Source of the DNA: Candidatus Angelobacter sp.
GTDB lineage: Bacteria; Acidobacteriota; Terriglobia; Terriglobales; Acidobacteriaceae
Length of the DNA stretch: 56,158 bases
NCBI GenBank assembly: GCA_035763445.1
Contig: DASUBD010000190.1
Location: 1-56,158, forward strand
Direction: 5' to 3'
Part shown: one piece after another, positions 34,000-54,187 of the stretch
Position numbering within the stretch: the first letter of the stretch is position 1
Layout: every line of letters begins with the position of its first letter
Made by a program: the position numbers and the translations under genes
The notes under the pieces: generated by a model
Database searches by the model: none
What the model was told of the DNA's origin: nothing
Seen by the model: only the letters and a program-made list of their open reading frames with translations

Positions 34000-35433
34000 T
34001 CACCGGCAATAGGGTAGGGGCGGCTCGATGACACCACCTTTGCCGGGAAGCGCGGTTCCGGGCACCGTCTTGCCTGATGGTTTGGCGAAGCAGCCTCTGT
34101 CTCTCTTGTATACCTTCATATCGTGACAATCGAGCGTGGGAGAATCCGCGCCGCACGAGAACGTGTGGACGGCGATCTTTGGGCTCGTCTCGTTGATGAG
34201 TTTCTTCAGAGTGTTGGGGGAGAGAAGTTCCGCTTGTTCGGGAACATTCGAGAAAAGGTCGCCAAGGGCTAGGGAAAAAGGTGGCACTGGATCGTTCTCG
34301 TTGACGTAGATATCCAGGGACTTTACATAGCCGGAGCGCACCAGCTCGTTCCACATCTGCAGGCTCTCCCGCGTGATTTGCGGCCCATAGAGCACAACCC
34401 GGTCTGCTATGACATCTTGATTTTCGAGCGCTGCCAAACAAATCATTGCACCGTTGCTATGGCATGCCAACTCGCCAAATTGACGATCTTTGAGCGAGGC
34501 ATAAAGCGCCTGTTCTCTGGCTGAGAACTGCCCGTTCTTGAACTCATCGAAAACCACACGATTTTTCAGGTCGAGAAGAATATTTGTAGAAGCACCGATA
34601 CCCAGCACGAAGTTGTAACGTGAAAAATCGACCCCGTCATATTCCTTGCCCGAAAGTTCCATCTGCTTTTGCAGCATCTGTTTCTCTTTGGCGAGGATAG
34701 CTGGATTTGCATCTTGCACGTTGTAACCCACGAGCCAGGATGTGCCTCCAATGAACCCATTACCTGACAGCCGGTATTGGCGCCAGGTGTGGCCACGCAA
34801 ATCTTTTGAAATCGCTGCCAACTGTTGCGCGGTCATTTCATCTTCCAACTCTTCCCGCGTTGCCTGTAAATCTGCGGCCGCGGTCGCATCCTCAATTTCC
34901 TGGCGCAATCTTAGGAGATCCGCGGCAGCCCGGGCATCTTCCAATTCATCCTGGAGTGCCTTGTTCGCTCTGTCGAGGTGGGCGCGGATTGCAGCATTTT
35001 GCGGATCGGATTCGAGTGCGGCCAGCAGGTGATTCACAGCAGCTCTGTTGTCACCGCGGTTCAGGGCGTCCATGCCCATCTGATCGGCTTCGCTGGCCTT
35101 GCGTTTGCGCTCTGCTTCTTCGGCCTGTCGCCGCATTAATTCTTGCTGTTGTTGGAGTTGCTGCCGCTGGATTTCCTGCTGTCGTCGGTCGGGCCCCGAA
35201 GCGATATTGCCGCCGCGCCGGTAGCACCGAGGAACATAGTTGGCACTACAACTATACGTCTCGCTCATGGAGCCGTCAGGGCAGCGAGCAGAGCAAGTAC
35301 CCTGGGCGGCCGCCGGTGTCGAGAACATGAAGAGTGCTGGAATAAGAGCACCCATCAACGACAAGTCGCGGCGCAACCATCGTCTCTTACCGGCAACGGA
35401 TCTCTGTTTGGGATGTGGATTCCCCGTGCTCAT
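34000..35433 (-). CDS. secreted coiled-coil protein with C-terminal alpha/beta-hydrolase-like (Ser nucleophile?) domain
   Basis: It has a signal-like N-terminus (RRWLRRDLSLMGALIPALFMFSTPAAAQG). A Q/E/A-rich coiled-coil region has internal EDA-x-AAADL repeats. The C-terminal ELACHSNGAMICLAAL resembles a nucleophile elbow (x-H-S-x-G). Confidence 0.7.
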   Translation of the reverse strand: MSTGNPHPKQRSVAGKRRWLRRDLSLMGALIPALFMFSTPAAAQGTCSARCPDGSMSETYSCSANYVPRCYRRGGNIASGPDRRQQEIQRQQLQQQQELMRRQAEEAERKRKASEADQMGMDALNRGDNRAAVNHLLAALESDPQNAAIRAHLDRANKALQDELEDARAAADLLRLRQEIEDATAAADLQATREELEDEMTAQQLAAISKDLRGHTWRQYRLSGNGFIGGTSWLVGYNVQDANPAILAKEKQMLQKQMELSGKEYDGVDFSRYNFVLGIGASTNILLDLKNRVVFDEFKNGQFSAREQALYASLKDRQFGELACHSNGAMICLAALENQDVIADRVVLYGPQITRESLQMWNELVRSGYVKSLDIYVNENDPVPPFSLALGDLFSNVPEQAELLSPNTLKKLINETSPKIAVHTFSCGADSPTLDCHDMKVYKRDRGCFAKPSGKTVPGTALPGKGGVIEPPLPYCR

Positions 35434-36383
35434 TGGCTCTGCTTGAGACTCGCCGCGAGCTTACGGAAAGATTCGAGCTCGTCGTTCACGAGACGAACCA
35501 CGTCGCCGTACTGGGCGTAGGACTTGGAGAATTGAGGATACTGACGCTGACAGTCCTGGATGTCACTCTCGCTTGGAAGATCATACTGCTCTGAAATCGC
35601 GGCAACTATGGCCAGAATCTGCGCGCCGTCAAACTCTCGCGGGCCACCCTGCTTCGGGGGCAGGTCAACCAGAACGGCGCCTTTGGGTTGGGAGAGCCGT
35701 GCATCCGCCGCGCGCAGAGCAATCGCGATCGGGTCGTTTTTGTAGGCTCTGAACTTCTGCTTCGCTTCCTCCCGATTTGGAGCCGACGGGACCTTCCCAG
35801 GACAGGCTTTGTTAGATTGGGCGGCGGCGGGCGATGCGGGCATAATGCTGCTATTTTCCCAGGCATCCGGGATTGACAGATATAGCTGCTTGGGCTTCCC
35901 TGGCTCAATGTCAACTTCCCAGCCAGCCGAAATTACAAATGGGAAGGAACTTTTGTAAAATGGCCCGGGCAAAAGGACCGCAATATCAACATTGTATTTG
36001 CCTGCGGAAAGTGGAAGCTCGACAGGTTGGAAAAGATGCAAGGCGTCCCTCGATTCGGCGTCGAGGTCATAGGGACTGAAGTCGCGGTCCCAGCCGTCGT
36101 CGTGAATCTCTCTCAGGACGAGGCCATTTTGGTTCAGAATCTCCCATCCTTTCTTACCCTTTGAGGCAACGACAGCAGAACCTGTGTCCGACGGGGGGTG
36201 TGGAGGCGCACTCACGATATGCCCGTTCACGTAGATCCAATAATTGCTCCCGACCACGCCGGAAGGCACCCAAACTGTCAGCCGGGCAGAGGCCGGCTTC
36301 GGCGCATCATTGCACACAGCGTTCATCTGACGAGGAATTCCAATCACTACAAGAAACAAAATCAGGTGGATGGAATAACGCAT
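35430..36383 (-). CDS. secreted hypothetical protein, translationally coupled to 34000-35433
   Basis: The signal peptide is MRYSIHLILFLVVIGIPRQMNAV, from ATG at 36383. It has a 4-nt ATGA overlap (35430-35433) with the downstream gene. I recognise no motif. Confidence 0.65.
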   Translation of the reverse strand: MRYSIHLILFLVVIGIPRQMNAVCNDAPKPASARLTVWVPSGVVGSNYWIYVNGHIVSAPPHPPSDTGSAVVASKGKKGWEILNQNGLVLREIHDDGWDRDFSPYDLDAESRDALHLFQPVELPLSAGKYNVDIAVLLPGPFYKSSFPFVISAGWEVDIEPGKPKQLYLSIPDAWENSSIMPASPAAAQSNKACPGKVPSAPNREEAKQKFRAYKNDPIAIALRAADARLSQPKGAVLVDLPPKQGGPREFDGAQILAIVAAISEQYDLPSESDIQDCQRQYPQFSKSYAQYGDVVRLVNDELESFRKLAASLKQSQ

Positions 36384-36714
36384 TAGGGCACCTGGGCTTG
36401 CCAGTCCGTTTCGCAACGCGGTTGTTTGCAGGAAGACGATTCTCCGCATCATCCTATTGTCGTTTAATTCAAGTACGAACACTGGTGACGAAAGTCACAC
36501 TCAAATGCTCGCAACAAGGGATCGACCACCCAGGGACGCCGGGAGGGCGAGAGAAAGCAGAAAGAGTTTGTCACCCGCCAAGAATACTTTTTCTTTGAGT
36601 GAAAGCCCGGCCAGGGCAATATATCGCTTGACCCCGTCAGGCGCGCTCTCTCATATGTACCGTGTGTCGCCCATTCCATATAGAATCTCGGATTATCGGG
36701 GTGAGGATCGAGAC

Positions 36715-37539
36715 ATGAAACAGCGGCGCTCCAAATCGTCCATTAAGTGGCGGTGTATTTTCAGATTCGCCTTCCTCTTGATCCTGGGATGTATCGGTTG
36801 CAGCAAGCCGCCGATGTTCCACGTCGTGGCACGCAGTGAACGGGCGACTGAAGGCGAACGGTACAAGATCTTTCTCAAAGGGCGCGAGTTGGGAACGGTC
36901 ACCGGCAGTGGCACGTTCGCGTTCGATGCCGACGGCCGGAAGGGCGATACCTTCCAACAGATGCAGCCCCAGGATCTGGAGGTCAGAATACCCTGGGTTT
37001 GTGGATGGGTAAAAACGGATTTCTCGTTGTACCTGGCCCATCCCGACGAGATTGAACGTGCCCGAGCCGAACACCGCCCTATTCAGGCCGGCATGAGCGT
37101 CTCGTACATGCCGCCCGCGTTCGATTGGGTCACGATCTTTGTCGATAACCGTGGCGGGCCGCTACAGACGGTTTCGATTGGCGAATTGCAGGAACAGGTG
37201 CCAGCGGGAGCGGCACAACGCGTCCTTTTGCCCTATTCGGAGGGTTGCGACAAGGCGAAGGATGTGCGCCTCAATGGAGCGGTTGTGGCGCCGGTCAGCA
37301 CTCGGCAAACCCTGCTGATCGACATCTCGCATTCCCATTGCTACCGTGTCGAATGGGCAGGCTACGGCTTCGATGACTCAGGCCACGGCAAAACAATTTA
37401 CCAGCCACACCCTTTCCAGTTCCTGGACAGCAACCCCGACTTTTTTATGGAACCAATGCCAGGCTCCGTGGTAACAGCAGGAAATGGCACCGTGAGGGAT
37501 ACCCTAAAGGACGTAGCCTGCCCTAAGCGTGTTCGCTAG
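36715..37539 (+). CDS. lipoprotein, function unknown
   Basis: MKQRRSKSSIKWRCIFRFAFLLILGCIGCSKPP contains a lipobox-like L-G-C. GGTGAGGA SD lies upstream of the ATG at 36715. The gene is divergent from the secreted pair. Confidence 0.65.
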   Translation: MKQRRSKSSIKWRCIFRFAFLLILGCIGCSKPPMFHVVARSERATEGERYKIFLKGRELGTVTGSGTFAFDADGRKGDTFQQMQPQDLEVRIPWVCGWVKTDFSLYLAHPDEIERARAEHRPIQAGMSVSYMPPAFDWVTIFVDNRGGPLQTVSIGELQEQVPAGAAQRVLLPYSEGCDKAKDVRLNGAVVAPVSTRQTLLIDISHSHCYRVEWAGYGFDDSGHGKTIYQPHPFQFLDSNPDFFMEPMPGSVVTAGNGTVRDTLKDVACPKRVR

Positions 37540-37828
37540 TGCAATCCCGGGCTGCTGGGTAGCCCTGGGTGTAATTGGGTCCAAACCGTCCCCCTGATTG
37601 AAGTATGCATGCGCGTGGGGGCATTCAAGGTGAAGCAAAGAACCACCTGGGCGGGCGAGGAAGACTGCCGAGACTTGGTTGTATCTGGATATACCGTGGC
37701 AAGGGTGTGAAGCCGAAGGCGAAATTGAGCTTCGCTTACGGATTCAAAAAGCATTGATCTTTCCAGACCTTTCGTATTGTTTGGCGTCTTCTCTGCCATG
37801 GCGCTTGCGCTCGCTCTGGTGGGCGTCG

Positions 37829-38278
37829 TCACCTCCTCATTCCCAAAGGCATGTTGTCGGCTGCCGACGCGACCTGTGCCCAGTTGCCGGTGATGATTCC
37901 ATGAGCCGATTGACCGGTTGCTATGGCCTCTTGAGAAAATGTTCCATTTGGATTGAACGGGTTTAGCCCCGAAGGCAATGTCTTGTAAGTGCGCAGTACT
38001 CCGACAAGTTCACAACCTGGCATCCATGGTAACCATTGCTGATGTCTTGTTGCAGCGCCGAAAGCTAGGCAGGGGGACGTGCAGACTCTCTCAAGGCAGT
38101 GCCAATGGGCGATATCTCTTCCTGCAAGTGCAATCGGGCCGCCAAACTCGATTAAGGCGAGGCAGACTCGTATGCGAACGAAACGGATTTCTCGGGCGAG
38201 CCCTAAATCCGAGGTCACCCACGTCTTTCCACTCACAGCACAACTCCACACCATCATCTTTGAAGCAAGTCGTTTCAA
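37829..38278 (-). CDS. hypothetical protein (weak)
   Basis: Supported only as an open frame, with no motif and no convincing SD. It lies in the gap between the lipoprotein gene and the helicase stop. Confidence 0.25.
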   Translation of the reverse strand: MKRLASKMMVWSCAVSGKTWVTSDLGLAREIRFVRIRVCLALIEFGGPIALAGRDIAHWHCLERVCTSPCLAFGAATRHQQWLPWMPGCELVGVLRTYKTLPSGLNPFNPNGTFSQEAIATGQSAHGIITGNWAQVASAADNMPLGMRR

Positions 38279-38345: not shown

Positions 38346-41300
38346 CTAATGCCTCTGATTCGGCGACTTCCTCCGGAACCTTTCGATTCGCTCAGCAGCC
38401 GATATTGGTTGCGCCGGTGAAGCCGTCGAGGGACTCTCAGCCCCTTCGGTCTCATATTGTCGGTTCGCGAGGAGATCACGGAGGACAGCAAGCGCTACGG
38501 GGCGACGCAGTCTCCCAAGCTCAAGATCCGCCTGGCTCGCTGTCGTGAGCAGACAGTTTAGGCAAGCTGATGTGCACTTCCGATCGTGCTCGGAGTTGCG
38601 GTACAGCAACTCCGCTGTTCGTTCAAACCAACTTCTAGCGTTGGCATTTGTAGCAAGCTCAGACACGTGTCCTGCTCCACCGGCGGTGTTGTCGAAAAGG
38701 TAAAGCCCCAATCTGGCGGCTTGACCTGAAGGAGCAAAGTGCACACCAAGCTCCCGATGATCTATTTCCAGAAGCTCCGCGCCAGCTAATCGCAAGCCGT
38801 GACCAAGCGTCACTATTACGTCGCTCGATAGGTCTCGATGACCCACACTGGAAAAATCAAGTTGAAGAATATCCGTAACATGGGTTGCGGCGAAGAGGTG
38901 ATTCCGAAAGACGGGAGACGCATCGCGAGGCCAACAGATCCCTCGATCTAAATGCAAGGCGGTGTGGTCGGAAAACCCCTTTGGGAGGTTCATTCGTCCT
39001 TCGCCGTGATCGGGTTCGCTTTGAGAATACCCGCACCGTGTGCATATAGCGAAACCTTTTTCATTTTCGCCATTGTTGTAGGAGAGCATCTCTCCGCCCT
39101 CGCACAATTCGGCCGAAAGGTGACGGATTCCCGCGAAATCGTCCGTTCGGATGTTCGACCTGCCTTCTATGAATGCCATTGTGGCTAAGGACGTGTCGCC
39201 AATCCGCTCAACATTTCCTTCCCACTGTGGGGGATCCCAAACAGCGGTGGAATATCCGTAACGAGCGATAAGAAGGGGCTCGCCTTGATCACGCTTCATG
39301 CATGTGCAGCCCTTGATCTTACAGAGGGGCGTCTGGTCTGGCAGAAAAGAATAGGAGACATGTCCTGCATCGCACACGTACTTCCAACAGCGTTTGCCAA
39401 ACCCAGTTTCTTCCGCACCTTTCCTCCACGCCGGCAAGACACCCTGCGATGTATAGGTGCGGCCGCCTACCAAAACCTTAGAGCCGGGGACGTATTCGCT
39501 CACCGCAAGAATTCCGCTCCGCTCAAGCTTTATGGGCACCCTCGACACCGAGCGATTCGATGGCACGGTGAGCGACTGCACTCCAATTGGAAACCCGTAA
39601 CGCGGCAAAAACTGGCGAGTTCCTAACTCTTCTATAACTGTCGTCCCCCACAGAGCATCCGCTTGATGAGCGATTGCGTTTAGCTGGGATATCGACGTCT
39701 TCTCTGTCCACCGTAAGCGCCGCACCCACTCTTCAACCAACCCATCATAATCGCTTCTCCATTCAACGCACGCCTTTCGGAATGAATGTGCAACCTCAGC
39801 CATGAGTGAGTCCCAAGCTTGAACTTTGTTGGACAGTGGAGTGCTTGCTAACAAGGTCTTGATCTTTTCAAGATATGGCGACCCGGCTTCTCTCAATGCT
39901 TCAATAAAATTTCCAAACTGGTCTGCTACACTCAGCTGCTGATCACCCCACCATGGATAATCTGTTCGCAGATTGAGTTCATATGCGAATTCATGCGGTC
40001 TATCAGGCCATTTTTCGCTGCTACGAACGATCGGAAGACGAGGACGACCAAGCAGCCAACCCATCTTCTGAAAAGCGTTCATCGCACCAACACGTGTCAT
40101 CGGTAGATAGATAAGTCGAAAGAACTCACCCAATAGAAACGCATGCAGGTGCTTACGGCTGAATCGTTCCCTTCCGAGGAGGACAGAGGGTTCGCGCAGA
40201 GGTCGATGAAAAAAAGCGGTGAAGTCTCGGAAAACCGCATGATCAAAAGCAGTCGTTCGAGCGTAAGTTGCGACGATTGATGACCCGTCCGAGCGGCGCC
40301 CGGCGCGCCCACCACGCTGCTGGTAGTTTGCCCGGCTCGGAGGTACATTGCCAAGCAATACGCCTGAAAGACCCCCAATATCTATCCCAACTTCCAAAGT
40401 CGTCGTGGCGCTTAGAACGTTTCGAGCTCCTTTCGAAAACAAGTCCTGCAACCGCCGGTTCTCATCACTGCTCAGCTGGGCGGAGTGTTCTTCTGCCCAA
40501 AGACCTATTTGGAAGGCGGGGTCATTCTTAAATGATCGTCGAGATCGTCCGAGCCGCGGGTGATTATCGAGCTCTTCTGGCAACGCAAGCTCCAAAGAAT
40601 CATACGACCCTTGCTCTGGTGCGCAACGAAAAACAGAGCGGGGCCAGACGTGTCCCGTGATTCTGCACACAAACAATTTTTCTGGCACACGCAGAGTGAG
40701 ATGTTTCAAACGAAGGCGAATGGCATCGCGTGGAGCTCCATCTCGACTCTGACGCGAGCTCGATTCCAGCCAAGTAACACCGGATTCGGCCATTTGCCGA
40801 AGCTGGTCAAAACATGCCTGGAGCACGGGAACAATAAGTTCGTTCGACAGTTCCGCTGTGCAGCCGGCACTCCTAAGAACATTCAGGCAAAACGCGTTCC
40901 TTCGTGCAGGTGGGTTTCTGTTGATGTCTCCAATCATTGGGACCATCGTCCCAGTCCGATCCCGAAGTCCAACCCACCGGCCAACCGGGAAATATGTGTC
41001 ATTCTGGTCCGCGTCAATGTTGCCGAGAGTAATGGCCCGATCGGCGCGGAGCGTATCACAAAGCCCAGCAACAAACAGAGGCCAATTTTGGATAAACACC
41101 TGAGCTGGTTCGCTGCTCATCCGGCCCAATATCTCGTCTGGCGGCCGAAGACCAGCAATTCCTGGGTAACATATTTCAGCTAATCCAAGTGTCTCCAGCG
41201 AGATTTGTGACCATGCTGGGCTGACAAATTCGGCACTTAGGAGTCGATCAGCAGCGCGTGCAATGTCCTTGTGGTTAGCTTCCCACACTTGCTGGTTCCA

Positions 41301-43586
41301 TTCTTCCGCACGATGGTTCTGCCCTCTTTCACGAGCAAAGAACTGGGCCAGAAGAGGGCGAATAGCCAACTTGGCTGTCCATTCAGAAATTGGGACGCCC
41401 TGCTGGAGGGCTTTCAATCGCGCAGTCTTGCCAGCGAGCTCGATCTCTATGTCCTGCCGTTCGAATGCGCTCAAAGATTCGCTGGCGAACTCGACAGAGA
41501 GAAACTCGATACTCCGCTGGAGCCGCGCACGCGAGTGCTCATCAGAGGCGCCCTGTGAAAGTGTTTCCCAAATCACCACACGACGCATTTGTGCCTCGTG
41601 CTGTGTGGTTAAGAGCGGTCCAAGACGTGCCGCCTCTCGTCGGCTGTCACTGAACACGAGTAAGCGTCGTCCGCGTGCGGGCAGCCATTGTCGATCACTT
41701 GCGTTGGTGACAGGCATTGTTGCCAAGAGGCTCTCGGCAGCAACTGGTAACATAAGCGCATCCGGAATCTTTATAGGACCAAAGTTGCTTTTGTCCCCAC
41801 CGCAGTTTGGACATGTTTCAAGTTCATGCATTTGGACGAATTCGCCGTCCGCTTGTTCACATGAACCGCTCTTAAGATCAAAACTGAAACCAAGCGTGCC
41901 TTCCCCCGGCCGGCAGAACAAATACGCAGCTTCTCGTATTTGTCCAGATTGCCATCGATGGCGCGGATGAAGAGTGTTGGAGGTAAGCCGCCTCACACCA
42001 GCTAATAGCCACTCACCGCAATTTTCGCAGCGGGCCAAGGTCAGTGTTGCGCTCTCACAGGAACTGCATCGATCGTAAGGCTCGCTAACGAGTTCACCAC
42101 CTCCGGGTAGACGCGGTCCCTTAGCCGAACATGCCGGATTTGCGCATGCAGTTACTGTCGAGGGAGCGCGAAATAGGATATGCAACCTGTGAGGCAGTAG
42201 AGGGAGCTCATCAACCTGACGTCGTGCTCGTGCTCCAAGCTGAAGTAGCTTTGCCGTGGCCTTCGTGGCGTCCGCACCGTTCTCCGAGGGCCACAGGAGT
42301 GCTGACAATTCCTTCAGTTTTGTAAGCGATGCCCCCCGCTTCTCCCAGACAAGAGCCTCGAGTTGATGAATAATTGGAGCACGTTCCAGCAAGGCCATAA
42401 GAACCCGAGCGGGTGATTCCTCACCCAGAGTCACATTGACGGCATCTGGGCCGACCAAAGGTGCCATAGCCGCTCGGACTGCACCAGCGGCGGTTGAGTC
42501 AGAGATGAGCTGATTGTTCTCCACGAAAGGAATAGATTCAATGTGATCCACCTGCAGGTCACTTGGTCTGCAGGTCCGCGATGGCGGCGACGCTTCTGGA
42601 AAGGCGTGGCGTACCGGCGTGCCGTGCACTGTATGTACCAGCTCTATCGGCTTCGAGAATAACTCAGCACCAAATTTCTTAAGCACCTGTGCATCGCCGC
42701 CAAAGGTGGCCGATGTTGCAATTTGGAGAACTTCTGAGGGTGAAAGCCCACATCGCAATAGAACTCGGCGAAGCAATAAAGAGAGTTCCGCAGCGAGTGT
42801 GCCACTGTAAAGATGAGCCTCATCAATAACAATCGTTCTTAGTGCCGGCCCAAAGAACGAAGTATCCTGAGGACGGCACAACATATATTCGAGCATCGAA
42901 TAATTTGTTACTAGTACATCGGGCGGGGAAAGTCGGGCCGACTCCCGAGTTCGTTTTCGACATGGCCCAAATTTCGGATATCCAATGCTGTTCGCGTGCT
43001 GTTCGTTCTCAGGTGTTTCGCTTGTGAAATGGAACAGCGTAATATCGGATTGTGGCTGCAACCAGCGATATAAACGTTCCACTTGATCATTTACCAATGC
43101 GTTGATGGGATACAGAATGACCACGCGAACGCCGCGGTCACTCTGGGGACGCGGATGTTGAAAGAGGTCGTTCAGCAACGGAAGCAAGAATGCCTCGGTC
43201 TTCCCAGCACCAGTGCCTGCACTGACAACTATCGCGGGCCGTTCCGGATCGGGCCGCGCTGCCCTCATAATGCACTCTTCTTGGTGACGATAGAGGGGCT
43301 TCGAGACGTCAAAAGCACCACTTTTCTCTACGCACTTCGCCAGATTAGGAGAGAGAACGCCAGCTTTTGATAGTAGAGCAATGTTGTTTTCTGAGACAGA
43401 TGCAGGAAAAATGCTTTCAACCCAAAGGTCCCCAACAGTTCCTTGATGATCATCGGAGAATAATTCCATGCATTGCTTCAGGAGCTCCGGATCTCGCAAA
43501 TAGACTCGCGACTCGATGAATTCGAGTAATCGTGATCTGAGTCTGGCATGTGTGTCAACCGCATCCAACTGGAACTTGTCTGTCAT
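38346..43586 (-). CDS. giant DEAD/DEAH-box helicase with internal zinc ribbons and C-terminal DUF1998/MrfA-type Cys cluster (DruE-like)
   Basis: - Helicase motifs: motif I SAGTGAGKTEAF, motif II VIDEAHLYSG, FSDSRREAARL, and motif V/VI TTTLEVGIDIGGL...YQQRGGRAGRR.
- Zinc ribbons: CANPACSAKG...CSSCES...CENCGEW and CPNCGG.
- C-terminal Cys cluster: KCTSACLNCLLTTASQ.
- Start: I chose ATG at 43586, which overlaps the upstream stop as ATGA (43583-43586). Confidence 0.9.
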   Translation of the reverse strand: MTDKFQLDAVDTHARLRSRLLEFIESRVYLRDPELLKQCMELFSDDHQGTVGDLWVESIFPASVSENNIALLSKAGVLSPNLAKCVEKSGAFDVSKPLYRHQEECIMRAARPDPERPAIVVSAGTGAGKTEAFLLPLLNDLFQHPRPQSDRGVRVVILYPINALVNDQVERLYRWLQPQSDITLFHFTSETPENEQHANSIGYPKFGPCRKRTRESARLSPPDVLVTNYSMLEYMLCRPQDTSFFGPALRTIVIDEAHLYSGTLAAELSLLLRRVLLRCGLSPSEVLQIATSATFGGDAQVLKKFGAELFSKPIELVHTVHGTPVRHAFPEASPPSRTCRPSDLQVDHIESIPFVENNQLISDSTAAGAVRAAMAPLVGPDAVNVTLGEESPARVLMALLERAPIIHQLEALVWEKRGASLTKLKELSALLWPSENGADATKATAKLLQLGARARRQVDELPLLPHRLHILFRAPSTVTACANPACSAKGPRLPGGGELVSEPYDRCSSCESATLTLARCENCGEWLLAGVRRLTSNTLHPRHRWQSGQIREAAYLFCRPGEGTLGFSFDLKSGSCEQADGEFVQMHELETCPNCGGDKSNFGPIKIPDALMLPVAAESLLATMPVTNASDRQWLPARGRRLLVFSDSRREAARLGPLLTTQHEAQMRRVVIWETLSQGASDEHSRARLQRSIEFLSVEFASESLSAFERQDIEIELAGKTARLKALQQGVPISEWTAKLAIRPLLAQFFARERGQNHRAEEWNQQVWEANHKDIARAADRLLSAEFVSPAWSQISLETLGLAEICYPGIAGLRPPDEILGRMSSEPAQVFIQNWPLFVAGLCDTLRADRAITLGNIDADQNDTYFPVGRWVGLRDRTGTMVPMIGDINRNPPARRNAFCLNVLRSAGCTAELSNELIVPVLQACFDQLRQMAESGVTWLESSSRQSRDGAPRDAIRLRLKHLTLRVPEKLFVCRITGHVWPRSVFRCAPEQGSYDSLELALPEELDNHPRLGRSRRSFKNDPAFQIGLWAEEHSAQLSSDENRRLQDLFSKGARNVLSATTTLEVGIDIGGLSGVLLGNVPPSRANYQQRGGRAGRRSDGSSIVATYARTTAFDHAVFRDFTAFFHRPLREPSVLLGRERFSRKHLHAFLLGEFFRLIYLPMTRVGAMNAFQKMGWLLGRPRLPIVRSSEKWPDRPHEFAYELNLRTDYPWWGDQQLSVADQFGNFIEALREAGSPYLEKIKTLLASTPLSNKVQAWDSLMAEVAHSFRKACVEWRSDYDGLVEEWVRRLRWTEKTSISQLNAIAHQADALWGTTVIEELGTRQFLPRYGFPIGVQSLTVPSNRSVSRVPIKLERSGILAVSEYVPGSKVLVGGRTYTSQGVLPAWRKGAEETGFGKRCWKYVCDAGHVSYSFLPDQTPLCKIKGCTCMKRDQGEPLLIARYGYSTAVWDPPQWEGNVERIGDTSLATMAFIEGRSNIRTDDFAGIRHLSAELCEGGEMLSYNNGENEKGFAICTRCGYSQSEPDHGEGRMNLPKGFSDHTALHLDRGICWPRDASPVFRNHLFAATHVTDILQLDFSSVGHRDLSSDVIVTLGHGLRLAGAELLEIDHRELGVHFAPSGQAARLGLYLFDNTAGGAGHVSELATNANARSWFERTAELLYRNSEHDRKCTSACLNCLLTTASQADLELGRLRRPVALAVLRDLLANRQYETEGAESPSTASPAQPISAAERIERFRRKSPNQRH

Positions 43587-46500
43587 TTCACTTTGCCCAA
43601 CACCTCTAACAATTCCAAAACAAGCCATCTGCGAAATGGCTGGACTCCTATTGCAACCCGTAGGTTCGTGGATCGAATGTTTCTCCCGTGGTACAGATCT
43701 ACTGCTTCGTTCCAGAGTACCCGTCGAACAAAAGCTGGATCAGCACCCAACTCCTTTACCCCCCGCTGAAAGAGTTCGGTTCTTACAGCATCGAGAGTCC
43801 CGGACTCCCTCGGCAACCCGGCAATTATGTTCGCGAACATGGACAACAATAGTTGGCGTTCCGCATCGGAAACGTTCGAATACATTGATTTCACACCGCC
43901 CACGACGATTGCCGCCAGCAAGACTGGATTAATTAACGCGAGCTCCGACGACCCCATCCAACTGTCTTTGAGATCGCTTTCTGGCGATCCAGTCAACAAT
44001 CTCGTTGCGCGCAATATTTCAGAGGCTTGAAGTTCGTTCGGCATCCAATGCCAAAAGAACTCCCGAATAACAGCGCCCCAACCGGACGACCCGATGCTTT
44101 CATCGGTGTAGGACATGTCCCCGAATCCGCTGTCGGCCACCCACGAAAGAAGAGTCGGTAATTGTGATTTGTCAATGCATTTGGCTGCAAGATCCTTTAG
44201 TCTCGGATGTAATAAAGGAATGCGCCACCAGCGCATCCAGGGCCTAACAGCTTCCCAGGATTCAGGTGTTAAAACTTCTCTTAGCTCATCGATACATTCA
44301 CTGTGAACGAAACGAGACCCGAGGCATGATCCACGGAAGCTCACTGCGAAGGCCAAGGCCTGCTGCGTGGTATGGACAATCAGATCCCTGCCGACACATG
44401 AAATCTGTCTACGATCCACGTTGCGCGGCGCGTGTTCTCCTCTTTGCCAGATCCAAACGCCGTGCTCGGGTCCAAAATCGAGGGCACTGGAAAGCGTCAG
44501 GCAGTACCCGCCCTCTGTCGCGTCTATGTTTGCGATTAAGCCACTGTCCGAGATAGCAAGGGCAAGATCAATGCCCTGGCCTGAGGAGTTATAAGGTCCA
44601 ATTGTAAGCCGCAACGGTTCCCCTACGCCTGCAAGGACACTATCCAGCCCCGCAACACCCTGACGACGGCTTCGCGCGCAGAACCTTTGTCCCTCTAACA
44701 GTGCCCATTCCTCGGTCTCCACTTGAATGCCATGCCACGACCGCGGGGGACGGATAAACAGTTTCTTGCCAATAAAATCCTGGCGATCGAGCATGTCATT
44801 CGAATTCAGTACAAGCCAACCAGAATTTTTCTTCCGCAAAGCCGCCCCCCAGACATCATTAAGAAGAACAATTCGTGCCGCAAGCTTGTGCACGCCGGTT
44901 CCTTCCGTCGCTAGGATCCCAGCCTTTATGCGATCGTAGTTGAGAGGCGCCAATGCGACCTTGAATCCGCTTGCTGATCGTCGCACGATCTGATCGCCGA
45001 TAATGAGAGCTATTGCGGTCAGTTCTGGTGGCATCGAAACGTCAGCGGTCGAATATTCCCCGAGCCTACCTCCCGACAGGCGTATTTGAATACTGGACGG
45101 AGACTGACGCCTACTTCCGGCAGGCTCCAATGGTTGCCACAATAACTGGCCTTCCAATTCAACCTTCAAATTTTGGGGACAGCCGTTCGGAAAATCGTGG
45201 AGCACCCAAGAGTTTTGGGCAACCCGCCTCATGCGAATTCCTTTAGGAAAGACCTGAATATCCCCTCGACATGCCAGCACAACAGGGCGACCTGGTTTGA
45301 CGTTCCAGAGATCCTGTCGTTTTCCTGTAGATCGATCAAAGAACACGAGTTCATCTTCACCATTGAAAATACTGAGAGAATAGCCGGACGCGATGCAGTG
45401 GCCTTTTTCAATGAGTGTAATGCTCAATTGCGTCTCTAAAAGGGGTATGCGGAATTCGCCGAGAATGAATCTGCCTTGTTCCGACCGTATCAGCCTTGCG
45501 CGATATTCCTCTCCAAACTGAACGACATACTCTGGAGCGCTGAACTCCTCCGGCCAATTTGGTGAAGCCTCGATGCAGACACTCGGATCTGCACTGTCCC
45601 AAAGCAATCGAATGACAAATAGGTCTGACTCTTCATCCTCCTGGCCGAGCAAACCCTGAGAGGGCTGTGATTCGGTTTTCTCCGAAGCGGCCGCGATGAG
45701 CTGGTCGACATCGTGCCAGGAGAACCAAGTGCTACCTTCGAGCACTTTTCGCAGTTCTGCGGTACTTTGTAAACCGCTTCGATATTGACGGACCTCTGCC
45801 CACACATTCCGAAATTCAGGTGCTTGTAAGTCTGGATCATCAAGGAGATCATTAATGGCGACTGGGAGTTTTGCTCCTGAGAGCCACTTCGGTAGACGGC
45901 GCAAGCCGCTCGTTGTTAAGCCGAACTGCAAATACACCGTTCGCAACCAGGCCATGGCACCTTCACGTCCGAACGCGTGACGAAGGTTGAATCTTCTGCA
46001 GGCATCTTCCGTTGCTTCTTGTAACCAATACTTGGGTACGGCCCTGTCTCCGTTGAACAATTCCGACCTGAGATGCTCTCCGATTTCGCGATAAATCTGC
46101 GGCCACAACTCTCCCTCTGTTGCACGCCTACGCGCGACATCGAAACAATAGGCTAGGAAGACAATCGCTAAAGCCTCCCTTTGTGTCAATGCTCGGCTCT
46201 GGAACGTTCTGCTTTTCTGGCCTTCGATGCTCGCTGATTTTGCCCAACGGTGTAAGACGCTCAAATCGTCCGCTGACCAGTTCAGCTCAACCATTGACCA
46301 ACGGGAATCATCAACGAGTAATCCCAAGCTCTTTGCTCGGGCTAGCAAACGCATTGCGGCACTCCAAACAAAGAACTCTGAAGACGCGCTCAGATCGAAA
46401 AATAGAGTGGGTTTGCCCTCCGGTCCCCAATTAGCACCAATAGCAGATGCGATTGCTGCCTGGGCTGCGTCCGGCGTGTTCACGGATTCGGATGGCACTG

Positions 46501-48340
46501 CCGCGTCTCTGCCCACCAAAGTGTAGTATCCACTGCCAATCGGTTTGATAATCGCCGAAGACCCTATCGTCCTCTCGAGAGATGCTTCGCTCCCGTCGGA
46601 GAAGGTCGAACAGATCCGTTTGAGATCAATGCGTCGTACTGGGCCAGGCTGGTCACGCAACGCGACATATATTGCGGTCTCCGCTTCCGATAAGTCGGCA
46701 CCTGATTGGTCGGCAGCACACATCACAGTGCCGCCTTCAACTTTGAGGTAACCAGAGCAGCTGGAACATAAGCGCTCTAAAACAGGAGAAGGTAGATTAA
46801 TGTCGGAAGTACGAGAATCACGTAAAACAGCACTCCGTAGCTCTTCGACCGTAACTGTCTTGGCTACCGAGAAGACTTTTCTTATTCGGCTCATGATCGG
46901 GTTCCGCGGCACTTCCGCAGACCAGAACCACTCTCGGCTTTGATCCAACCATGTTAGCCCGCGGAGCAGAGGGAGGAACTTTTCGATGTAAGATCGTGAG
47001 TGCCCGCTTTTAGCGTCGGCGAGACCATCGGCAACGTATGTTACCGACGTGATCCCGTATTGGCTGATCCTTTTGCGTGCTTCGTTCAAAATCTTACTGA
47101 CCAAGCCTATCGATTGCGAATCAACGGCGATGCGAACGCCACCCTCCTCGATAATTGAGAATGACACGGGAAGTTCAAACATCTCTGCTATCTTTCGCAG
47201 GGACTCGAGTCTAAAGGGTCGCGAAGTCAAACCGCTGCTCAAAAGCTTACGCTCAAGTTCCTCCGCGTCGCAGGGGCTGTGCTTATTGACAAAGCAGAGC
47301 GCTAATCGAAGCGAACCAGGGGCTTTGGATCCCATTCGTTCACGAATTTTCTCCAGAATTTGCCGGACTCTTTCTCGTGTTAAGCCAAGCGGTCGACCGA
47401 TCTCTTCCAAAGTTTCTGTTGGCCTACCGTCAAGGCCGAAATATCTGATCGCAATTTCTCCGTTTCGTCCTTCGCGCACAACTCGACGGCAGAGCTCGAC
47501 ATCGAGACATTCCGGGGCGGCCTCCTCGGAAGATAGCAGGTCCGAGCGGAAAAGTGTTGCCAGTTCAGAAAGCCACTCTTTTTGCCACGGTGCGAGCTGA
47601 TCAGACAGTTCAATTCCGAGTTCTTTTAACTGGTTGCGGACGATGGCCACTTCCTCTGGTGATAGAGTATTCGCCAGGAATGCTTCGCCTCCTTGAAGCA
47701 ACTCTCCAACCACGCTAATGCCCCGGAAACGCAGAGAAAGTTTCCCGCAGCCAATTGTGTCTATTCCACGCAAGAGGTGGAGATTGACAGAGAGCAGCTG
47801 TTCTTTGCTGGATTGATATAGCGACTGAAGGCTGTATAGTTCAGCTTCGGTCATGCCCAGATGCAAATCCAAATTCGAAATTAGTTCTTGGATTTCCTGG
47901 AGTGTCTTGCTCCCAAGATTCTTCAGTCGGCGAATCTTGTCAGCCCTCAGCGAAACGAGTTCACCAATTGTGCTTATTTTCGCTTGCTGTAGACAATTAG
48001 CAGCGCGGACCGACATCGAAAACCGAGCAACAGGAGTGTCAAGCAATGAAGCGAAGGGCAGTTTTTGTGTGTTAGAGAGAACCGCACCGTCGATTGCTGC
48101 TACGAGGAACCCCGCATTTGCTCGGTGAAGCTCACATGCTAGAACACACGCAAACTCCCAATCGCAGCTGAGTCCGTGCAGATCAGAGAAAAGCGGGATC
48201 CCTTGTCCTACCAGAAATCGTAAAACATTGGGCACCGCCACCCGATTTGCTCGCAAAGAGGGATAGATAAATGCTCGCAAAGCCACGCGCGCTGAGTCAA
48301 TCATTGGACGGAGTGGTTCACGTTTGGATGCTGACTGCAA
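43583..48340 (-). CDS. 1585-aa protein: N-terminal RNA polymerase alpha-CTD-like HhH module(s) plus sigma-70 region-4-like HTH, followed by ~1200 aa of unknown function
   Basis: - Alpha-CTD-like segment: FSMSVRAANCLQQAKISTIGELVSLRADKIRRLKNLGSKTLQEIQELISNLDL matches the RpoA C-terminal domain pattern (LS-x-R-x-x-N-C-L...I-x-x-x-G-x-L...L-x-x-x-x-N-x-G-x-K-S/T-x-x-E-I).
- A weaker second copy: LSLRFRGISVVGELLQ...EEVAIVRNQLKELGIEL.
- Sigma-r4-like segment: IRYFGLDGRPTETLEEIGRPLGLTRERVRQILEKIRERM matches sigma-70 region 4.2.
- The start is uncertain: TTG at 48340 or ATG at 48304. Confidence 0.88.
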   Translation of the reverse strand: MQSASKREPLRPMIDSARVALRAFIYPSLRANRVAVPNVLRFLVGQGIPLFSDLHGLSCDWEFACVLACELHRANAGFLVAAIDGAVLSNTQKLPFASLLDTPVARFSMSVRAANCLQQAKISTIGELVSLRADKIRRLKNLGSKTLQEIQELISNLDLHLGMTEAELYSLQSLYQSSKEQLLSVNLHLLRGIDTIGCGKLSLRFRGISVVGELLQGGEAFLANTLSPEEVAIVRNQLKELGIELSDQLAPWQKEWLSELATLFRSDLLSSEEAAPECLDVELCRRVVREGRNGEIAIRYFGLDGRPTETLEEIGRPLGLTRERVRQILEKIRERMGSKAPGSLRLALCFVNKHSPCDAEELERKLLSSGLTSRPFRLESLRKIAEMFELPVSFSIIEEGGVRIAVDSQSIGLVSKILNEARKRISQYGITSVTYVADGLADAKSGHSRSYIEKFLPLLRGLTWLDQSREWFWSAEVPRNPIMSRIRKVFSVAKTVTVEELRSAVLRDSRTSDINLPSPVLERLCSSCSGYLKVEGGTVMCAADQSGADLSEAETAIYVALRDQPGPVRRIDLKRICSTFSDGSEASLERTIGSSAIIKPIGSGYYTLVGRDAAVPSESVNTPDAAQAAIASAIGANWGPEGKPTLFFDLSASSEFFVWSAAMRLLARAKSLGLLVDDSRWSMVELNWSADDLSVLHRWAKSASIEGQKSRTFQSRALTQREALAIVFLAYCFDVARRRATEGELWPQIYREIGEHLRSELFNGDRAVPKYWLQEATEDACRRFNLRHAFGREGAMAWLRTVYLQFGLTTSGLRRLPKWLSGAKLPVAINDLLDDPDLQAPEFRNVWAEVRQYRSGLQSTAELRKVLEGSTWFSWHDVDQLIAAASEKTESQPSQGLLGQEDEESDLFVIRLLWDSADPSVCIEASPNWPEEFSAPEYVVQFGEEYRARLIRSEQGRFILGEFRIPLLETQLSITLIEKGHCIASGYSLSIFNGEDELVFFDRSTGKRQDLWNVKPGRPVVLACRGDIQVFPKGIRMRRVAQNSWVLHDFPNGCPQNLKVELEGQLLWQPLEPAGSRRQSPSSIQIRLSGGRLGEYSTADVSMPPELTAIALIIGDQIVRRSASGFKVALAPLNYDRIKAGILATEGTGVHKLAARIVLLNDVWGAALRKKNSGWLVLNSNDMLDRQDFIGKKLFIRPPRSWHGIQVETEEWALLEGQRFCARSRRQGVAGLDSVLAGVGEPLRLTIGPYNSSGQGIDLALAISDSGLIANIDATEGGYCLTLSSALDFGPEHGVWIWQRGEHAPRNVDRRQISCVGRDLIVHTTQQALAFAVSFRGSCLGSRFVHSECIDELREVLTPESWEAVRPWMRWWRIPLLHPRLKDLAAKCIDKSQLPTLLSWVADSGFGDMSYTDESIGSSGWGAVIREFFWHWMPNELQASEILRATRLLTGSPESDLKDSWMGSSELALINPVLLAAIVVGGVKSMYSNVSDAERQLLLSMFANIIAGLPRESGTLDAVRTELFQRGVKELGADPAFVRRVLWNEAVDLYHGRNIRSTNLRVAIGVQPFRRWLVLELLEVLGKVK

Positions 48341-48462: not shown

Positions 48463-49539
48463 ATGATTTACAAACGAGGCCAGACGTACTGGTATAAATT
48501 CGCCTGGAGCATCAGGCAGCGAGACGGGACTTCGCGGTCGTTCTTGATACGCCGATCAGCGCGGACAAAGATCCAGGCCGAAGCTGAAGAAGTCGAACAT
48601 GAGCACCGTCGTGCCATCCGGTTGGGCGAAGTTCATCCGCTCGATCCCTGGCCCAAACCGCCGGCGCCTGAAGCGCCGATCCTAAGGGAGTTCACAACTC
48701 GCTTTCTCGAATACGCGAGATTGCATGTGAAGGAAAGCACTTTCGAGTTTTACAAAGGTGCTGTTGCCCGCTTACTGGCATTCCCCGAGCTCGCTAATAT
48801 ACAAATCTCCAAAATCAATCCAGAGATCGTTTCCCGCTTCGCCGGAAGCCGGAAGGCTAAGTCCGTAAGCGTAAGTGCAATCAATGGTGATCTACGGACA
48901 TTGCGCCGCTTGCTCAGGCTGGCTTTTGAATGGGAGATCATCCCGAGGGCACCTGTCGTGCATGCCCTCCCTGGAGAAAGAACCAGAAATCGGGTGATCG
49001 CATTCGAAGAAGAACAAGCATATCTGACGTGTTCGGGACCAAACCTGCGTGCGCTGACCATTCTTGCAGTTGATACAGGGATGCGCCCAAAATCGGAGTT
49101 GTTCAGGCTGGAGTGGCCTCAGGTCCACTTGGAACCGTCTGAAACGATGCCGAACGGACACATTAAAGTCAAAGAGGGAAAGACTCAGAGCGCGGAGAGA
49201 ATCCTCCCATTGACACCCCGGGGCGGGGAAACCCTACTTATATTAAGGATAGAGGTTCGCAGGAAGCGGTGGGTGTTTCCCGGACCCGGGAATTCAGGTC
49301 ACATCGTCAGCATTCAGAAGTCCCATCTCAGGGCAATCCTGAAAGCCGGCCTGGAGCGGTTCCCGTTCTACTGCTGGCGCCACACATTCGGTACGAGGTG
49401 CGCCGAGAGCGGAATGGATCGGCACACCCTCGCCAAATTGATGGGGCACAGCTCACCATGGATCACAGAGAAGTACTACATCCACGTGACCGAGCCGCAT
49501 ATCAGCTCCGGGTTCGGCCGTTTATGGCGTATCATATGA
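48463..49539 (+). CDS. tyrosine-type site-specific integrase
   Basis: The N-terminal arm-type MIYKRGQTYWYKFAW is present. Catalytic residues are in AVDTGMRPKSELFRLEW (Arg), CWRHTFGTRCAESG (H-x-x-R) and GHSSPWITEKYYIHV (His...Tyr). Confidence 0.92.
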   Translation: MIYKRGQTYWYKFAWSIRQRDGTSRSFLIRRSARTKIQAEAEEVEHEHRRAIRLGEVHPLDPWPKPPAPEAPILREFTTRFLEYARLHVKESTFEFYKGAVARLLAFPELANIQISKINPEIVSRFAGSRKAKSVSVSAINGDLRTLRRLLRLAFEWEIIPRAPVVHALPGERTRNRVIAFEEEQAYLTCSGPNLRALTILAVDTGMRPKSELFRLEWPQVHLEPSETMPNGHIKVKEGKTQSAERILPLTPRGGETLLILRIEVRRKRWVFPGPGNSGHIVSIQKSHLRAILKAGLERFPFYCWRHTFGTRCAESGMDRHTLAKLMGHSSPWITEKYYIHVTEPHISSGFGRLWRII

Positions 49540-49689: not shown

Positions 49690-50724
49690 TTATGACCGAG
49701 GCGGATAGGTCGTTGACGACGTTGCTTCTGCAGGAGGAGTACTGATTCGGCTTCTCTCGTCAGCGAGACGTTTCCACTCGTCAATATCGAATGTACCAAC
49801 GTGATTTGCCAAATCATCGTGATGCAAGCTTGCCTCAGTTACTGTAATCGTATGTAAAACGATACCGTTCTTGCCGACAACTCTTGGCCTCAGCGCGTCA
49901 AAAGCCCTCGGATCAGGAAAATCCCTGAAATTCCGATAGAAGATATGAGCGCAGATGTCCGCCACTTGGAGGCCAATCATTGACTTCGAATCGCGAAAGT
50001 TTGTGTGATTTCTAAATAAGTCATTGAAGTCGAACAAGCCTTTGTAGACTAGATATTTTCTTTTGAACGGATGATCAGGAGGCCATTCTTTGATCGTCGT
50101 CACTCCGCGCTGCCGACTGTTTTTCATTAGATCATTGCGCAGCCACTCGCGCCAGAACTCAACGTGCTCGTCTCTTCTGACGAAGCTCTCATCAATGGCG
50201 ATCTCAATATTTTCAAACTCGCTGGAGTGCTCCAGTTCTGCGAAACTGACAATCGCATGTTGTAGTGTTTCGATAATTGCTTGCTGAAGCGCGATAACCC
50301 AAAACACGTTAGATGTGCTTCGGTTTCTAACCCAGCCGCTCATCTGTCGATAGGTCTCTCTCAATTTGTTGTTCTCATGCTCGGCGCACAACTCAGAGGA
50401 CAACTGGAATAGCTCGGCAGCCTGATCGCGCAGCCGTTCGACAAATGATTCTTCGGTGGCTTGCGTGTCTCCGCCGACGAGCGTCAGGTGAATTTCTCGC
50501 CTAGTCGGAGGGAGCACCTTGTATGCGAAAGAGTACAGCTGGTTTGCCGTTAGATGTGGCCCCTTCAACTCCGCCTTGCTCTGTCCTACAACCGTGCGTT
50601 TCCAAGCCGCGAAACGCTTTTCCAATTCAGGCAATTCCTTATCGGAAACATTTAGTCCGCAAAAAAGAGACTTGCCTTTGTTCGTCCAAGAAAATGACCC
50701 GGATTCGTCGATAAAAATCCACAT
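49690..50724 (-). CDS. DUF3800-family protein
   Basis: The N-terminus MWIFIDESGSFSW is the hallmark F/Y-I-D-E-S-G start of DUF3800. The 344-aa size fits. Confidence 0.75.
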   Translation of the reverse strand: MWIFIDESGSFSWTNKGKSLFCGLNVSDKELPELEKRFAAWKRTVVGQSKAELKGPHLTANQLYSFAYKVLPPTRREIHLTLVGGDTQATEESFVERLRDQAAELFQLSSELCAEHENNKLRETYRQMSGWVRNRSTSNVFWVIALQQAIIETLQHAIVSFAELEHSSEFENIEIAIDESFVRRDEHVEFWREWLRNDLMKNSRQRGVTTIKEWPPDHPFKRKYLVYKGLFDFNDLFRNHTNFRDSKSMIGLQVADICAHIFYRNFRDFPDPRAFDALRPRVVGKNGIVLHTITVTEASLHHDDLANHVGTFDIDEWKRLADERSRISTPPAEATSSTTYPPRS

Positions 50725-52318: not shown

Positions 52319-52353
52319 CTGTAGCCCTCCTGGTCTAAAAAATGAGAATCTCG

Positions 52354-54173: not shown

Positions 54174-54187
54174 ATCGCGGCTCCGAA

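Follow-up and report, generated by a model that had tools for sequence, protein, structure and literature searches.

A large unnamed protein family paired with compact, nuclease-less DruE helicases: a probable Druantia type III-like system in Candidatus Angelobacter

Gene structure of the locus

The stretch studied here, hereafter the window, comprises 56,158 nucleotides (nt) of the forward strand of contig DASUBD010000190.1 from Candidatus Angelobacter sp. (assembly GCA_035763445.1). Two long, overlapping genes on its minus strand encode a large partner protein and, downstream of it, a helicase of superfamily 2 (SF2), and probably form a Druantia type III-like system of two genes against phages, located on a horizontally acquired island. 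The system is made up of the following elements (lengths in amino acids, aa; ORF, open reading frame):

43583..48304, minus strand: partner gene (druH-like), 1573 aa from the ATG at 48304, with its stop TGA at 43583-43585 (ORF list, translation and public gene call)
38346..43586, minus strand: druE-like gene encoding a compact, nuclease-less SF2 helicase of the YprA family (1746 aa)
43583..43586, minus strand: ATGA stop/start overlap of both genes, pointing to translational coupling (read from the sequence)

Both the ORF list and a reading of the sequence bear out the first-pass annotation of two minus-strand ORFs joined by an ATGA at 43583-43586. The partner frame ends ...AAA GTG AAA TGA, and the overlap combines the ATG of the helicase with the stop codon of the partner. 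The same annotation had assigned 1585 aa to the partner; a frame of this length does exist if it is opened at an alternative TTG at 48340, but the ATG at 48304 is more likely to be the start of the gene because it is the one used by the public gene call and because it agrees with where the domains lie in the homologues. The helicase frame likewise has a formal alternative ATG at 43628, which would yield 1760 aa, but in the 1746-aa form the alignment to the DruE profile begins at residue 11. Scans for promoters and terminators at both ends of the genes gave nothing beyond the shuffled expectation.

Assignment of the helicase to a compact DruE clade

The helicase displays the three domains typical of its family:

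42699..43289, minus strand: RecA1/DEAD domain, DruE residues 100-296, with the Walker A K129 and DEAH at 255-258 (Pfam DEAD, E 3.4e-20)
40293..40490, minus strand: Helicase_C (RecA2) core, DruE residues 1033-1098, with motif VI QRGGRAGRR at 1090 (Pfam, E 1.6e-10)
38550..38804, minus strand: MZB/DUF1998 zinc-binding domain, DruE residues 1595-1679, including CTSACLNC (Pfam MZB, E 3e-06, above cut-off)

All the helicase motifs quoted in the first-pass annotation are in place, namely AGTGAGKT at 123 (containing K129), DEAH at 255, FSDSR at 645, QRGGRAGRR at 1090 and CTSACLNCLL at 1671, along with five CxxC pairs. Of all the PADLOC models scanned, the best match was to DruE3 (PDLC00037, E 4.7e-200), with DruE1 (1.7e-149), DruE4 (5.6e-100) and DruE2 scoring lower. 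Among solved structures the best match was to the 2108-aa DruE 9tu7 (E 3.3e-78), as against E 1.4e-14 for the MrfA/YprA structure 6znp, where the similarity is restricted to the helicase core; the matches to MrfA and Lhr structures were weak. The earlier suggestion of a DruE is hence well supported by the type III models, and the grouping with housekeeping MrfA/Lhr repair helicases that had been named as its possible undoing was not seen. The same contrast in scores led to the rejection of an MrfA-type repair function. Also rejected were an assignment to Druantia type IV, as the DruE4 model scores below both DruE3 and DruE1, and readings as DISARM, Dpd, BREX or Cas3 components, as the corresponding PADLOC models match the generic helicase core only.

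A Pfam scan of the helicase recovered DEAD, Helicase_C and MZB/DUF1998 only, with no PLD, Vsr or other nuclease domain. Just 67 residues separate the MZB domain from the C-terminus, and the protein therefore has no such nuclease domain. Pairwise identity is 37-57% over the full length to the 1684-1806-aa helicases of the homologous loci L001, L003, L004, L008, L011, L019, L021 and L023, and only ~25%, in partial alignments, to five DruEs of 2038-2104 aa from Druantia III-A systems (plasmids of E. coli, Rhizobium, Methylocystis, Marinobacter and Sinorhizobium). By sequence, the window helicase is classified as a DruE of a compact, nuclease-less clade of 1684-1806 aa. As a separate observation, the compact DruE of L023 (14441-19690) has a weak precomputed match to PF27116 (YjiV_N), through which the compact clade is connected to yjiT-yjiV, the remnant of Druantia III in E. 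coli.

Architecture and family of the partner core

The C-terminal ~930 aa of the partner (residues ~642-1573) form a conserved core with three predicted parts:

45677..46381, minus strand: N-terminal α-helical domain of the core, partner residues 642-876, with the best-conserved family motif, here AYCFDVARRRATEGELW containing D722 (AlphaFold model m37db839c37a0)
44309..45619, minus strand: β-sandwich (Ig/Fn3-like) array of the core, partner residues ~896-1332 (secondary structure of the model and Foldseek)
43589..44296, minus strand: C-terminal α-helical domain of the core, partner residues ~1337-1572 (model; conserved W/P/N positions in alignments A1 and A3)

The AlphaFold model of the core was built on a 39-sequence alignment, with a predicted local distance difference test score (pLDDT) of 84 and a predicted template modelling score (pTM) of 0.69. 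In core numbering it consists of helical residues 1-235, β-sandwich residues 255-691 and helical residues 696-931; R84 and W93 are invariant in the family. Foldseek searches of PDB and BFVD with this model recovered only multi-Ig/Fn3 proteins (SbsC, contactin, Dscam) and phage tail proteins. NCBIfam, Pfam and PADLOC contain no model of the core, its profile yielded only noise against PDB sequences (PH1500, E 0.09) in a library that includes DruH 9tud, and tblastn searches of plasmids with the core and with the family protein P0084 gave no match.

When 1.84 billion cluster representatives (clusters at 50% identity) were searched exhaustively with HMMER, 1252 of them matched at E<=1e-3, a number that falls to 695 at E<=1e-10 and to 150 at E<=1e-30. 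Word-indexed protein searches understate the size of the family, as the full partner retrieved three weak relatives and a 34-sequence profile one. The best 150 matches include 72 proteins of 900-1000 aa that stand alone, 16 of 1100-1300 aa and 20 of 1450-1750 aa, the last group resembling the window protein. The core, as delineated by these profile searches, defines a large unnamed family.

An N-terminal extension built from transcription-related DNA-binding domains

Ahead of the core, partner residues 1-640 constitute an extension rich in DNA-binding folds, in which the C-terminal domain of the RNA polymerase α subunit (α-CTD) and region 4 of sigma-70 can be recognized. These two domains are absent from the first-pass annotation's account of the partner.

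47879..48046, minus strand: copy of the RNA polymerase α-CTD, partner residues 87-142 (Pfam RNA_pol_A_CTD, E 8e-16)
47333..47476, minus strand: sigma-70 region 4-like helix-turn-helix, partner residues ~277-324, motif TLEEIG..LGLTRERVRQI
46505..47317, minus strand: array of three to four winged-helix domains, partner residues ~330-600 (AlphaFold model mb6b944d761f1, pLDDT mostly 85-95)

The AlphaFold model of the extension, based on an alignment with 22 long-form homologues (pLDDT 82 overall), predicts in order a small α/β domain, the α-CTD, a second helix-hairpin-helix unit, a sigma region 4-like bundle and the three to four winged helices. PDB sequence searches with the extension recovered only α subunits and RpoS/RpoD region 4 chains, the α-CTD copy matching α subunits down to E 3.8e-10. 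Foldseek aligned this copy with 9zum and 3n4m at 38-40% identity and a root-mean-square deviation (rmsd) of 0.8-1.0 Å, and the winged helices with SelB WH1-4 and the Dcc1 triple winged-helix arrays. Pfam Sigma70_r4 covers residues 297-323 (E 4.4e-06, above cut-off). Positions R100, N103, C104, G131 and K133, which we take to be the equivalents of the DNA-contacting R265, N268, C269, G296 and K298 of the E. coli α-CTD, are retained in the partner. In sigma-70 it is the residues of region 4.2 that read the -35 element; the corresponding segment TRERVRQ is kept here, with R310 and Q315 invariant among the long-form homologues, and both sets of DNA-contact residues are conserved across these homologues. 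The partner is neither a complete α subunit nor a complete sigma-70 factor: of the dimerising N-terminal domain and the CTD of α and of sigma regions 2, 3 and 4, it possesses only the α-CTD (87-142) and sigma region 4 (~277-324), and its scores against the rpoA and sigma equivalogs lie far below their cut-offs.

At least 14 related cluster representatives share the extension at least in part. Among 33 extended members, Sigma70_r4 was found in 14, the α-CTD in 12, an additional Sigma70_r2 in two and TerB in one, and P0002 combines TerB, HARE-HTH and an α-CTD-like unit. In P0195 (1478 aa, from a Logan contig) and one further member (alignment A7), sigma-70 regions 2 and 4 both precede the DruH-like core, so that their head amounts to a nearly complete sigma factor fused to the scaffold. 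The published Druantia descriptions searched make no mention of α-CTD or sigma domains on the partner, and the sub-family fusing the core to the α-CTD and sigma region 4 appears to be undescribed in these papers.

Pairing of the two families in homologous loci

The first-pass annotation treated the two genes as a unit, and they do co-occur across genomes. Besides the window, the gene immediately following a member of the partner family encodes a compact DEAD/Helicase_C/MZB helicase in 11 of 11 independent loci examined (L001, L003, L004, L007, L008, L011, L012, L019, L021, L023 and a Roseomonas plasmid, the set including a metagenome-assembled genome (MAG) of Deltaproteobacteria). The junction is an overlap or a gap of at most 12 nt in most of these loci and 32 nt in L023. 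The pairing is strict and follows the type of helicase: the compact DruE goes with the core family, and the III-A DruE of 2038-2104 aa goes with a DruH of the STY4851/YjiT family. No conserved third gene was found in the homologous loci; a role for the small downstream ORFs of the window at 37829-38278 and 37536-37832 was rejected on this ground and because they have no family matches.

The flanking genes vary by locus, are often of a defence or mobile-element type, and include insertion sequence (IS) elements, MmeI-like restriction-modification genes, BrxC/D-like ATPases, PglW-like proteins with NERD, kinase and α-CTD domains, McrB-like genes and Schlafen/AlbA_2 genes, while the pair of the Roseomonas plasmid lies between IS elements. 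A position in the syntenic core genome, which the first-pass annotation had listed among the observations that would speak against defence, was not seen, as the flanks differ and the window pair resides in an island. A close-relative pattern scan with DruE over 185,579 representative genomes found one relative, and the distribution of the pair looks patchy.

Two further kinds of neighborhood were encountered. In the MAG contigs L019 (16548-19435) and L021 (16588-19552), and also in L020 and L022, a ~1340-aa PglW-like protein with NERD, Ser/Thr kinase and α-CTD domains directly follows the pair as a separate neighbor, and in L021 and L022 a BrxC/BrxD-like ATPase precedes it, which suggests larger BREX-2-related assemblies around the pair in these four contigs. 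In the Pseudanabaena plasmid NZ_AP017561 (L017, 3112-12988), a 2082-aa DruE-like helicase comes after two unannotated proteins of 898 and 310 aa that match neither DruH nor the core family, and that may represent yet another type of partner.

Relationship of the partner to DruH

Canonical DruH is the STY4851/ECs_5259 (YjiT) family (PMC13192584). It corresponds to the NCBI family of the former name, is covered by PF27205 and PF27201, has been solved as PDB 9tud, and is encoded upstream of the III-A DruE on five plasmids. The solved protein consists of a helical N-terminal domain (NTD), six Ig-like domains and a helical C-terminal domain (CTD) that touches the NTD (Loeff et al. 10.64898/2026.05.13.724313; Hu et al. 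10.64898/2026.05.12.722862). The modelled core of the partner has the same order of a helical domain, an Ig-like array and a second helical domain. Because of this identical order, weak colinear matches and a weak match of the N-domains, we lean towards reading the core as a very divergent DruH.

The weak matches between core and DruH pair N-terminus with N-terminus, middle with middle and C-terminus with C-terminus. An hhalign comparison limited to the N-domains gave a sub-threshold probability of 31% (E 5e-4), against 0.2-0.3% for mismatched domain pairs, and aligned DruH 'DGRPLYAYR...LYAAEwiRR..G.W' with 'PWSL.ELR...LLAAEvARR..EG.LW' of the partner family. Residues R22, K28 and E64 of the P. 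aeruginosa protein PaDruH are essential for defence and line a proposed exonuclease cleft (10.64898/2026.05.13.724313). By counting positions in DruH homologues, these residues fall in the DGRxLYAY[RK] and AAExxRR motifs, which are the very motifs of the N-domain match. The acidic residue and the two arginines are retained in the core family (E81, R84 and R85, each at least 90% conserved), the window partner having D722-x-x-R725-R726 as the equivalent.

Several results weigh against this descent. None of the 11-12 PADLOC DruH3 models matches the window partner at E<=0.01, so that the type III DruH assignment considered in the first-pass annotation failed at this test; across 40 members of the core family there is one match (E 0.0081), while genuine DruH sequences match 10-11 of these models. 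PF27205 and PF27201, both carried by 38 of 38 full-length DruH homologues, are absent from the partner's precomputed Pfam annotation. Whole-length hhalign of the 39-sequence core profile against a 27-sequence DruH profile gave a probability of 6%, and reciprocal hmmsearch between core and DruH found nothing significant. At the aligned acidic position the window partner has Asp rather than Glu, at the position of PaDruH K28 it has Asn, and the equivalents of R22 and K28 are not conserved. Foldseek returned generic Ig arrays and no DruH from a PDB copy extending to 2026-04-08, which is older than the 9tud entry. What connects the partner to DruH is accordingly its predicted architecture together with a single N-domain motif match below threshold. 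On these profile comparisons the partner is placed outside the DruH/YjiT family as currently defined. Its family probably corresponds to "type III-B", a branch that has been published without being characterised. As a separate, large sequence family missed by every DruH model tested, the partner of the compact clade appears to be undescribed in the papers searched.

Comparison with known systems

The window pair resembles the Druantia III-A systems of E. coli and P. aeruginosa in being a coupled two-gene operon with the large partner first and DruE second, in the YprA-type core of its DruE (RecA1, RecA2, zinc modules and MZB), in the predicted order of helical N-domain, Ig-like array and helical C-domain in the partner, and in its location on a mobile island. 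It differs in that its DruE is shorter (1746 aa rather than ~2040-2108 aa), has no counterpart of the two PLD nuclease domains at the C-terminus and shows only ~25% identity, and in that its partner is missed by the DruH3, YjiT and STY4851 models and bears a 640-aa extension of α-CTD, sigma region 4 and winged helix-turn-helix (wHTH) domains that canonical DruH lacks. In terms of the definition of Druantia type III, the DruE and the tight two-gene operon are present, and a DruH of the YjiT/STY4851 family is not; nor does the window DruE have the tandem C-terminal PLD-like domains and the ~2040-2100 aa that define III-A.

A closer counterpart is the III-B or "type III-like" branch, in which a compact DruE, mostly without a nuclease, is accompanied by one large unannotated partner (Himpich et al. 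10.64898/2026.05.13.724758; Bell et al. 10.1101/2025.09.15.676423, where GIH50614.1 is given as a representative DruE). The window DruE is likewise compact (1746 aa) and nuclease-less, with a single large partner, and thus resembles this branch by description. Two-gene DruH-DruE systems protect against phages, among them the Mycobacterium smegmatis pair MSMEG_1253/1254 with a nuclease-less DruE of 1667 aa (PMC13316683). The M. smegmatis genes also overlap, and their protein sizes (1132 + 1667 aa) resemble those of the P0084 pair (1144 + 1709 aa). The kind of system found here is consequently a known one, and the first-pass alternative of a "divergent Druantia III or new two-gene helicase system" stands in its first half, as a Druantia III-like pair with a DruE helicase; "new" is an overstatement, because a nuclease-less DruE with a single large partner has already been described as III-like or III-B.

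Beyond Druantia, the partner shares with PglW of BREX type 2 an α-CTD-like domain followed by winged helices (PADLOC PglW, E 2.5e-08; NCBIfam PglW, 3.2e-08), an α-CTD/wHTH module known from this sensor kinase (PMC12839542), and with MzaA of the MZA system sigma-70 region 4 (NCBIfam MzaA, 4.5e-04). Unlike these proteins, it has no kinase, NERD or STAND domain: the PglW match is limited to the α-CTD region (profile positions 803-953), without a match to the kinase, and the likeness is confined to the DNA-binding module. The window DruE shares its helicase superfamily and the MZB/DUF1998 domain with the MrfA/YprA-MrfB module and with DrmA/DrmB of DISARM, but the similarity is far weaker (6znp, E 1.4e-14; DrmA models, ~1e-16). 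Unlike in DISARM, the helicase is a single fused gene rather than split into DrmA and DrmB, and no DrmC/PLD or methyltransferase gene lies nearby; the earlier statement that methyltransferase, PLD and SNF2 genes are missing around the pair agrees with the neighbouring ORFs scanned. Unlike the MrfA/YprA-MrfB module, which has a ~750-aa helicase in a housekeeping context, the window has no MrfB-like gene and an island context.

The island and its other cargo

Up to ~31 kb the window contains ordinary chromosomal genes (sulfatase, phosphofructokinase, GH65, Usp and P-type ATPase). From ~33.8 kb there follow a block of ORFs without family matches, the gene pair, and then genes for an integrase, a DUF3800 protein, a ThiF/E1-like protein and an M78/IrrE peptidase. 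At the pair the guanine-plus-cytosine (GC) content drops from ~0.56 to ~0.52. No tRNA genes were found in the window. With its lower GC and these neighbours, the setting of the pair is defence-like.

48463..49539, plus strand: divergent tyrosine integrase, part of the island context and not of the system (Pfam Phage_integrase, E 4.3e-17, and SAM-like N-domains)

The distance of ~120 nt given earlier between this integrase and the pair is accurate when counted from the TTG at 48340 (122 nt) and becomes 158 nt from the ATG at 48304.

Other genes of the window are of interest in their own right. Between the housekeeping region and druE (33797-38278), ORFs of 477, 350, 360, 98 and 149 aa without Pfam or PADLOC matches may represent further island cargo or a further uncharacterised system. 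A 518-aa ThiF/E1-like protein (52354-53910, minus strand; Pfam ThiF, 2.3e-27) shows weak PADLOC matches to CBASS-type 'E1-E2' models (best 1.1e-08) and is flanked by four ORFs of 125-176 aa without family matches; this region (51412-54718) could be a ubiquitin-like conjugation module for defence, of the Bil or CBASS-accessory kind, in the same island. An IrrE/M78 peptidase-domain protein (54976-55863, plus strand) and a DUF3800 protein (49690-50724, minus strand) beside the integrase are typical cargo of mobile elements and defence islands. Well outside the island, among housekeeping genes, a 399-aa protein (20970-22169, minus strand) contains release-factor-like domains of baeRF families 10/5/3; the baeRF (bacterial archaeo-eukaryotic release factor) domain is linked to conflict systems.

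Proposed mechanism and alternatives

In III-A systems, dimers of DruE engage single-stranded DNA (ssDNA) that is exposed, or junctions, and their unwinding runs 3'->5' (10.64898/2026.05.13.724758; 10.64898/2026.05.12.722862), while DruH acts upstream of DruE. By analogy with the solved III-A enzyme, the compact DruE would use the same entry sites and, with ATP, unwind in the same direction. The partner core would supply infection sensing and/or DNA-end processing and control the helicase. In its simplest role, the N-terminal head would read AT-rich UP-like and -35-like DNA, and place or regulate the complex on DNA. Because the compact DruE has no nuclease, clearance must come from elsewhere, and might be effected by the partner, by host nucleases, or by a block of replication or circularisation, such as has been reported for the nuclease-less M. 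smegmatis system (PMC13316683). DruH has also been described as a sensor of late phage proteins via its Ig domains (PMC13192584).

Besides the results on DruH descent given above, two points tell against this picture of a Druantia type III-like anti-phage system. The published accounts of DruH conflict, presenting it as an ssDNA binder without nuclease activity whose binding is competed by ATP, as a 3'-5' exonuclease that makes the substrate of DruE, or as a dimer-dependent nuclease/protein sensor. Further, neither protein has a recognisable nuclease domain, which leaves the destruction of phage DNA unexplained.

The lack of significant sequence or profile similarity between the partner and DruH would also fit another reading, which we hold to be unlikely although it survives best among the alternatives. 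It takes the pair as a separate two-gene helicase system, whose partner came to resemble DruH by convergence on an Ig-array scaffold and whose α-CTD and sigma region 4 serve as baits for phage hijackers of RNA polymerase, releasing or activating the helicase. Such baits would account for the unusual faithfulness of the α-CTD copy (38-40% identity, rmsd ~1 Å, equivalent of E. coli R265 kept) and for the sigma region 2 present besides region 4 in two extended members, one of them P0195; they would also accord with the occurrence of an α-CTD/wHTH module in the sensor kinase PglW, PglW-like genes flanking the pair in L019-L022. However, 72 of the best 150 family matches lack the N-terminal extension and the core family is still paired with DruE, which argues that the extension is an accessory and not part of the core mechanism. 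Moreover, the conserved DNA-contact residues are equally explained by plain DNA binding, and the colinear weak matches and identical domain order favour common descent with DruH.

A decoy function is also conceivable for a pair with a DruH-like module, though we consider it more doubtful still: binding or modification of the α-CTD and sigma region 4, as mimics of RNA polymerase, by phage takeover factors would switch on that module and DruE. Candidate ligands are ADP-ribosyltransferases of the Alt/ModA type acting on the α-CTD, anti-sigma factors of the AsiA type, and activators that dock on the α-CTD or region 4.

The integrase-bearing island and the plasmid location in Roseomonas might instead indicate a system directed chiefly against plasmids or other mobile elements, or one that stabilises the island carrying it, and DruE-family helicases might act on the DNA ends or forks that also arise in conjugative transfer; this is quite improbable, as the experimentally tested Druantia III systems all act on phages (PMC13316683; 10.64898/2026.05.13.724758; 10.64898/2026.05.13.724313) and no addiction-type toxin is evident. 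Least credible of all is a housekeeping or transcription-linked repair pair, in which the α-CTD/sigma-like partner would bring an MrfA/Lhr-like helicase to promoters or RNA polymerase: the membership of DruE in the YprA/MrfA helicase family with its weak matches to MrfA and Lhr structures, and the transcription-machinery domains of the partner, are compatible with it, but the DruE3 score is ~185 orders of magnitude better than that of the MrfA type, an MrfB-like exonuclease is missing, the pair lies in a low-GC island beside an integrase, relatives are found between the IS elements of a plasmid and, without shared synteny, in a variety of settings beside restriction/BREX-like genes, and the single relative among the representative genomes gives the pair its patchy look.

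Implications for the Druantia systems

The competing mechanisms proposed in 2026 for Druantia III all come from the III-A systems of E. coli and Pseudomonas, in which DruE has its own PLD nuclease. Rules of the PADLOC type that need both DruH and DruE would miss the loci described here. As the DruH3 and YjiT models miss the partner family, which comprises at least 1252 clusters at 50% identity, Druantia-like systems are probably under-counted. A comparison of the two partner families could reveal the indispensable features of DruH, such as the acidic/Arg-Arg motif of the N-domain, the Ig array and the NTD-CTD clamp, and could help to decide whether DruH acts as a nuclease, binds ssDNA or senses proteins. 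If the decoy function were true, the sensing of transcription hijack would be coupled to a DNA-helicase immune effector, and the DruH scaffold would be a general platform for grafted sensor heads (α-CTD/sigma, TerB, HARE-HTH). In the sub-family whose members combine α-CTD, sigma region 4 and winged helices, it becomes tractable to ask whether recognition of promoter-type DNA or mimicry of RNA polymerase feeds into helicase-based defence.

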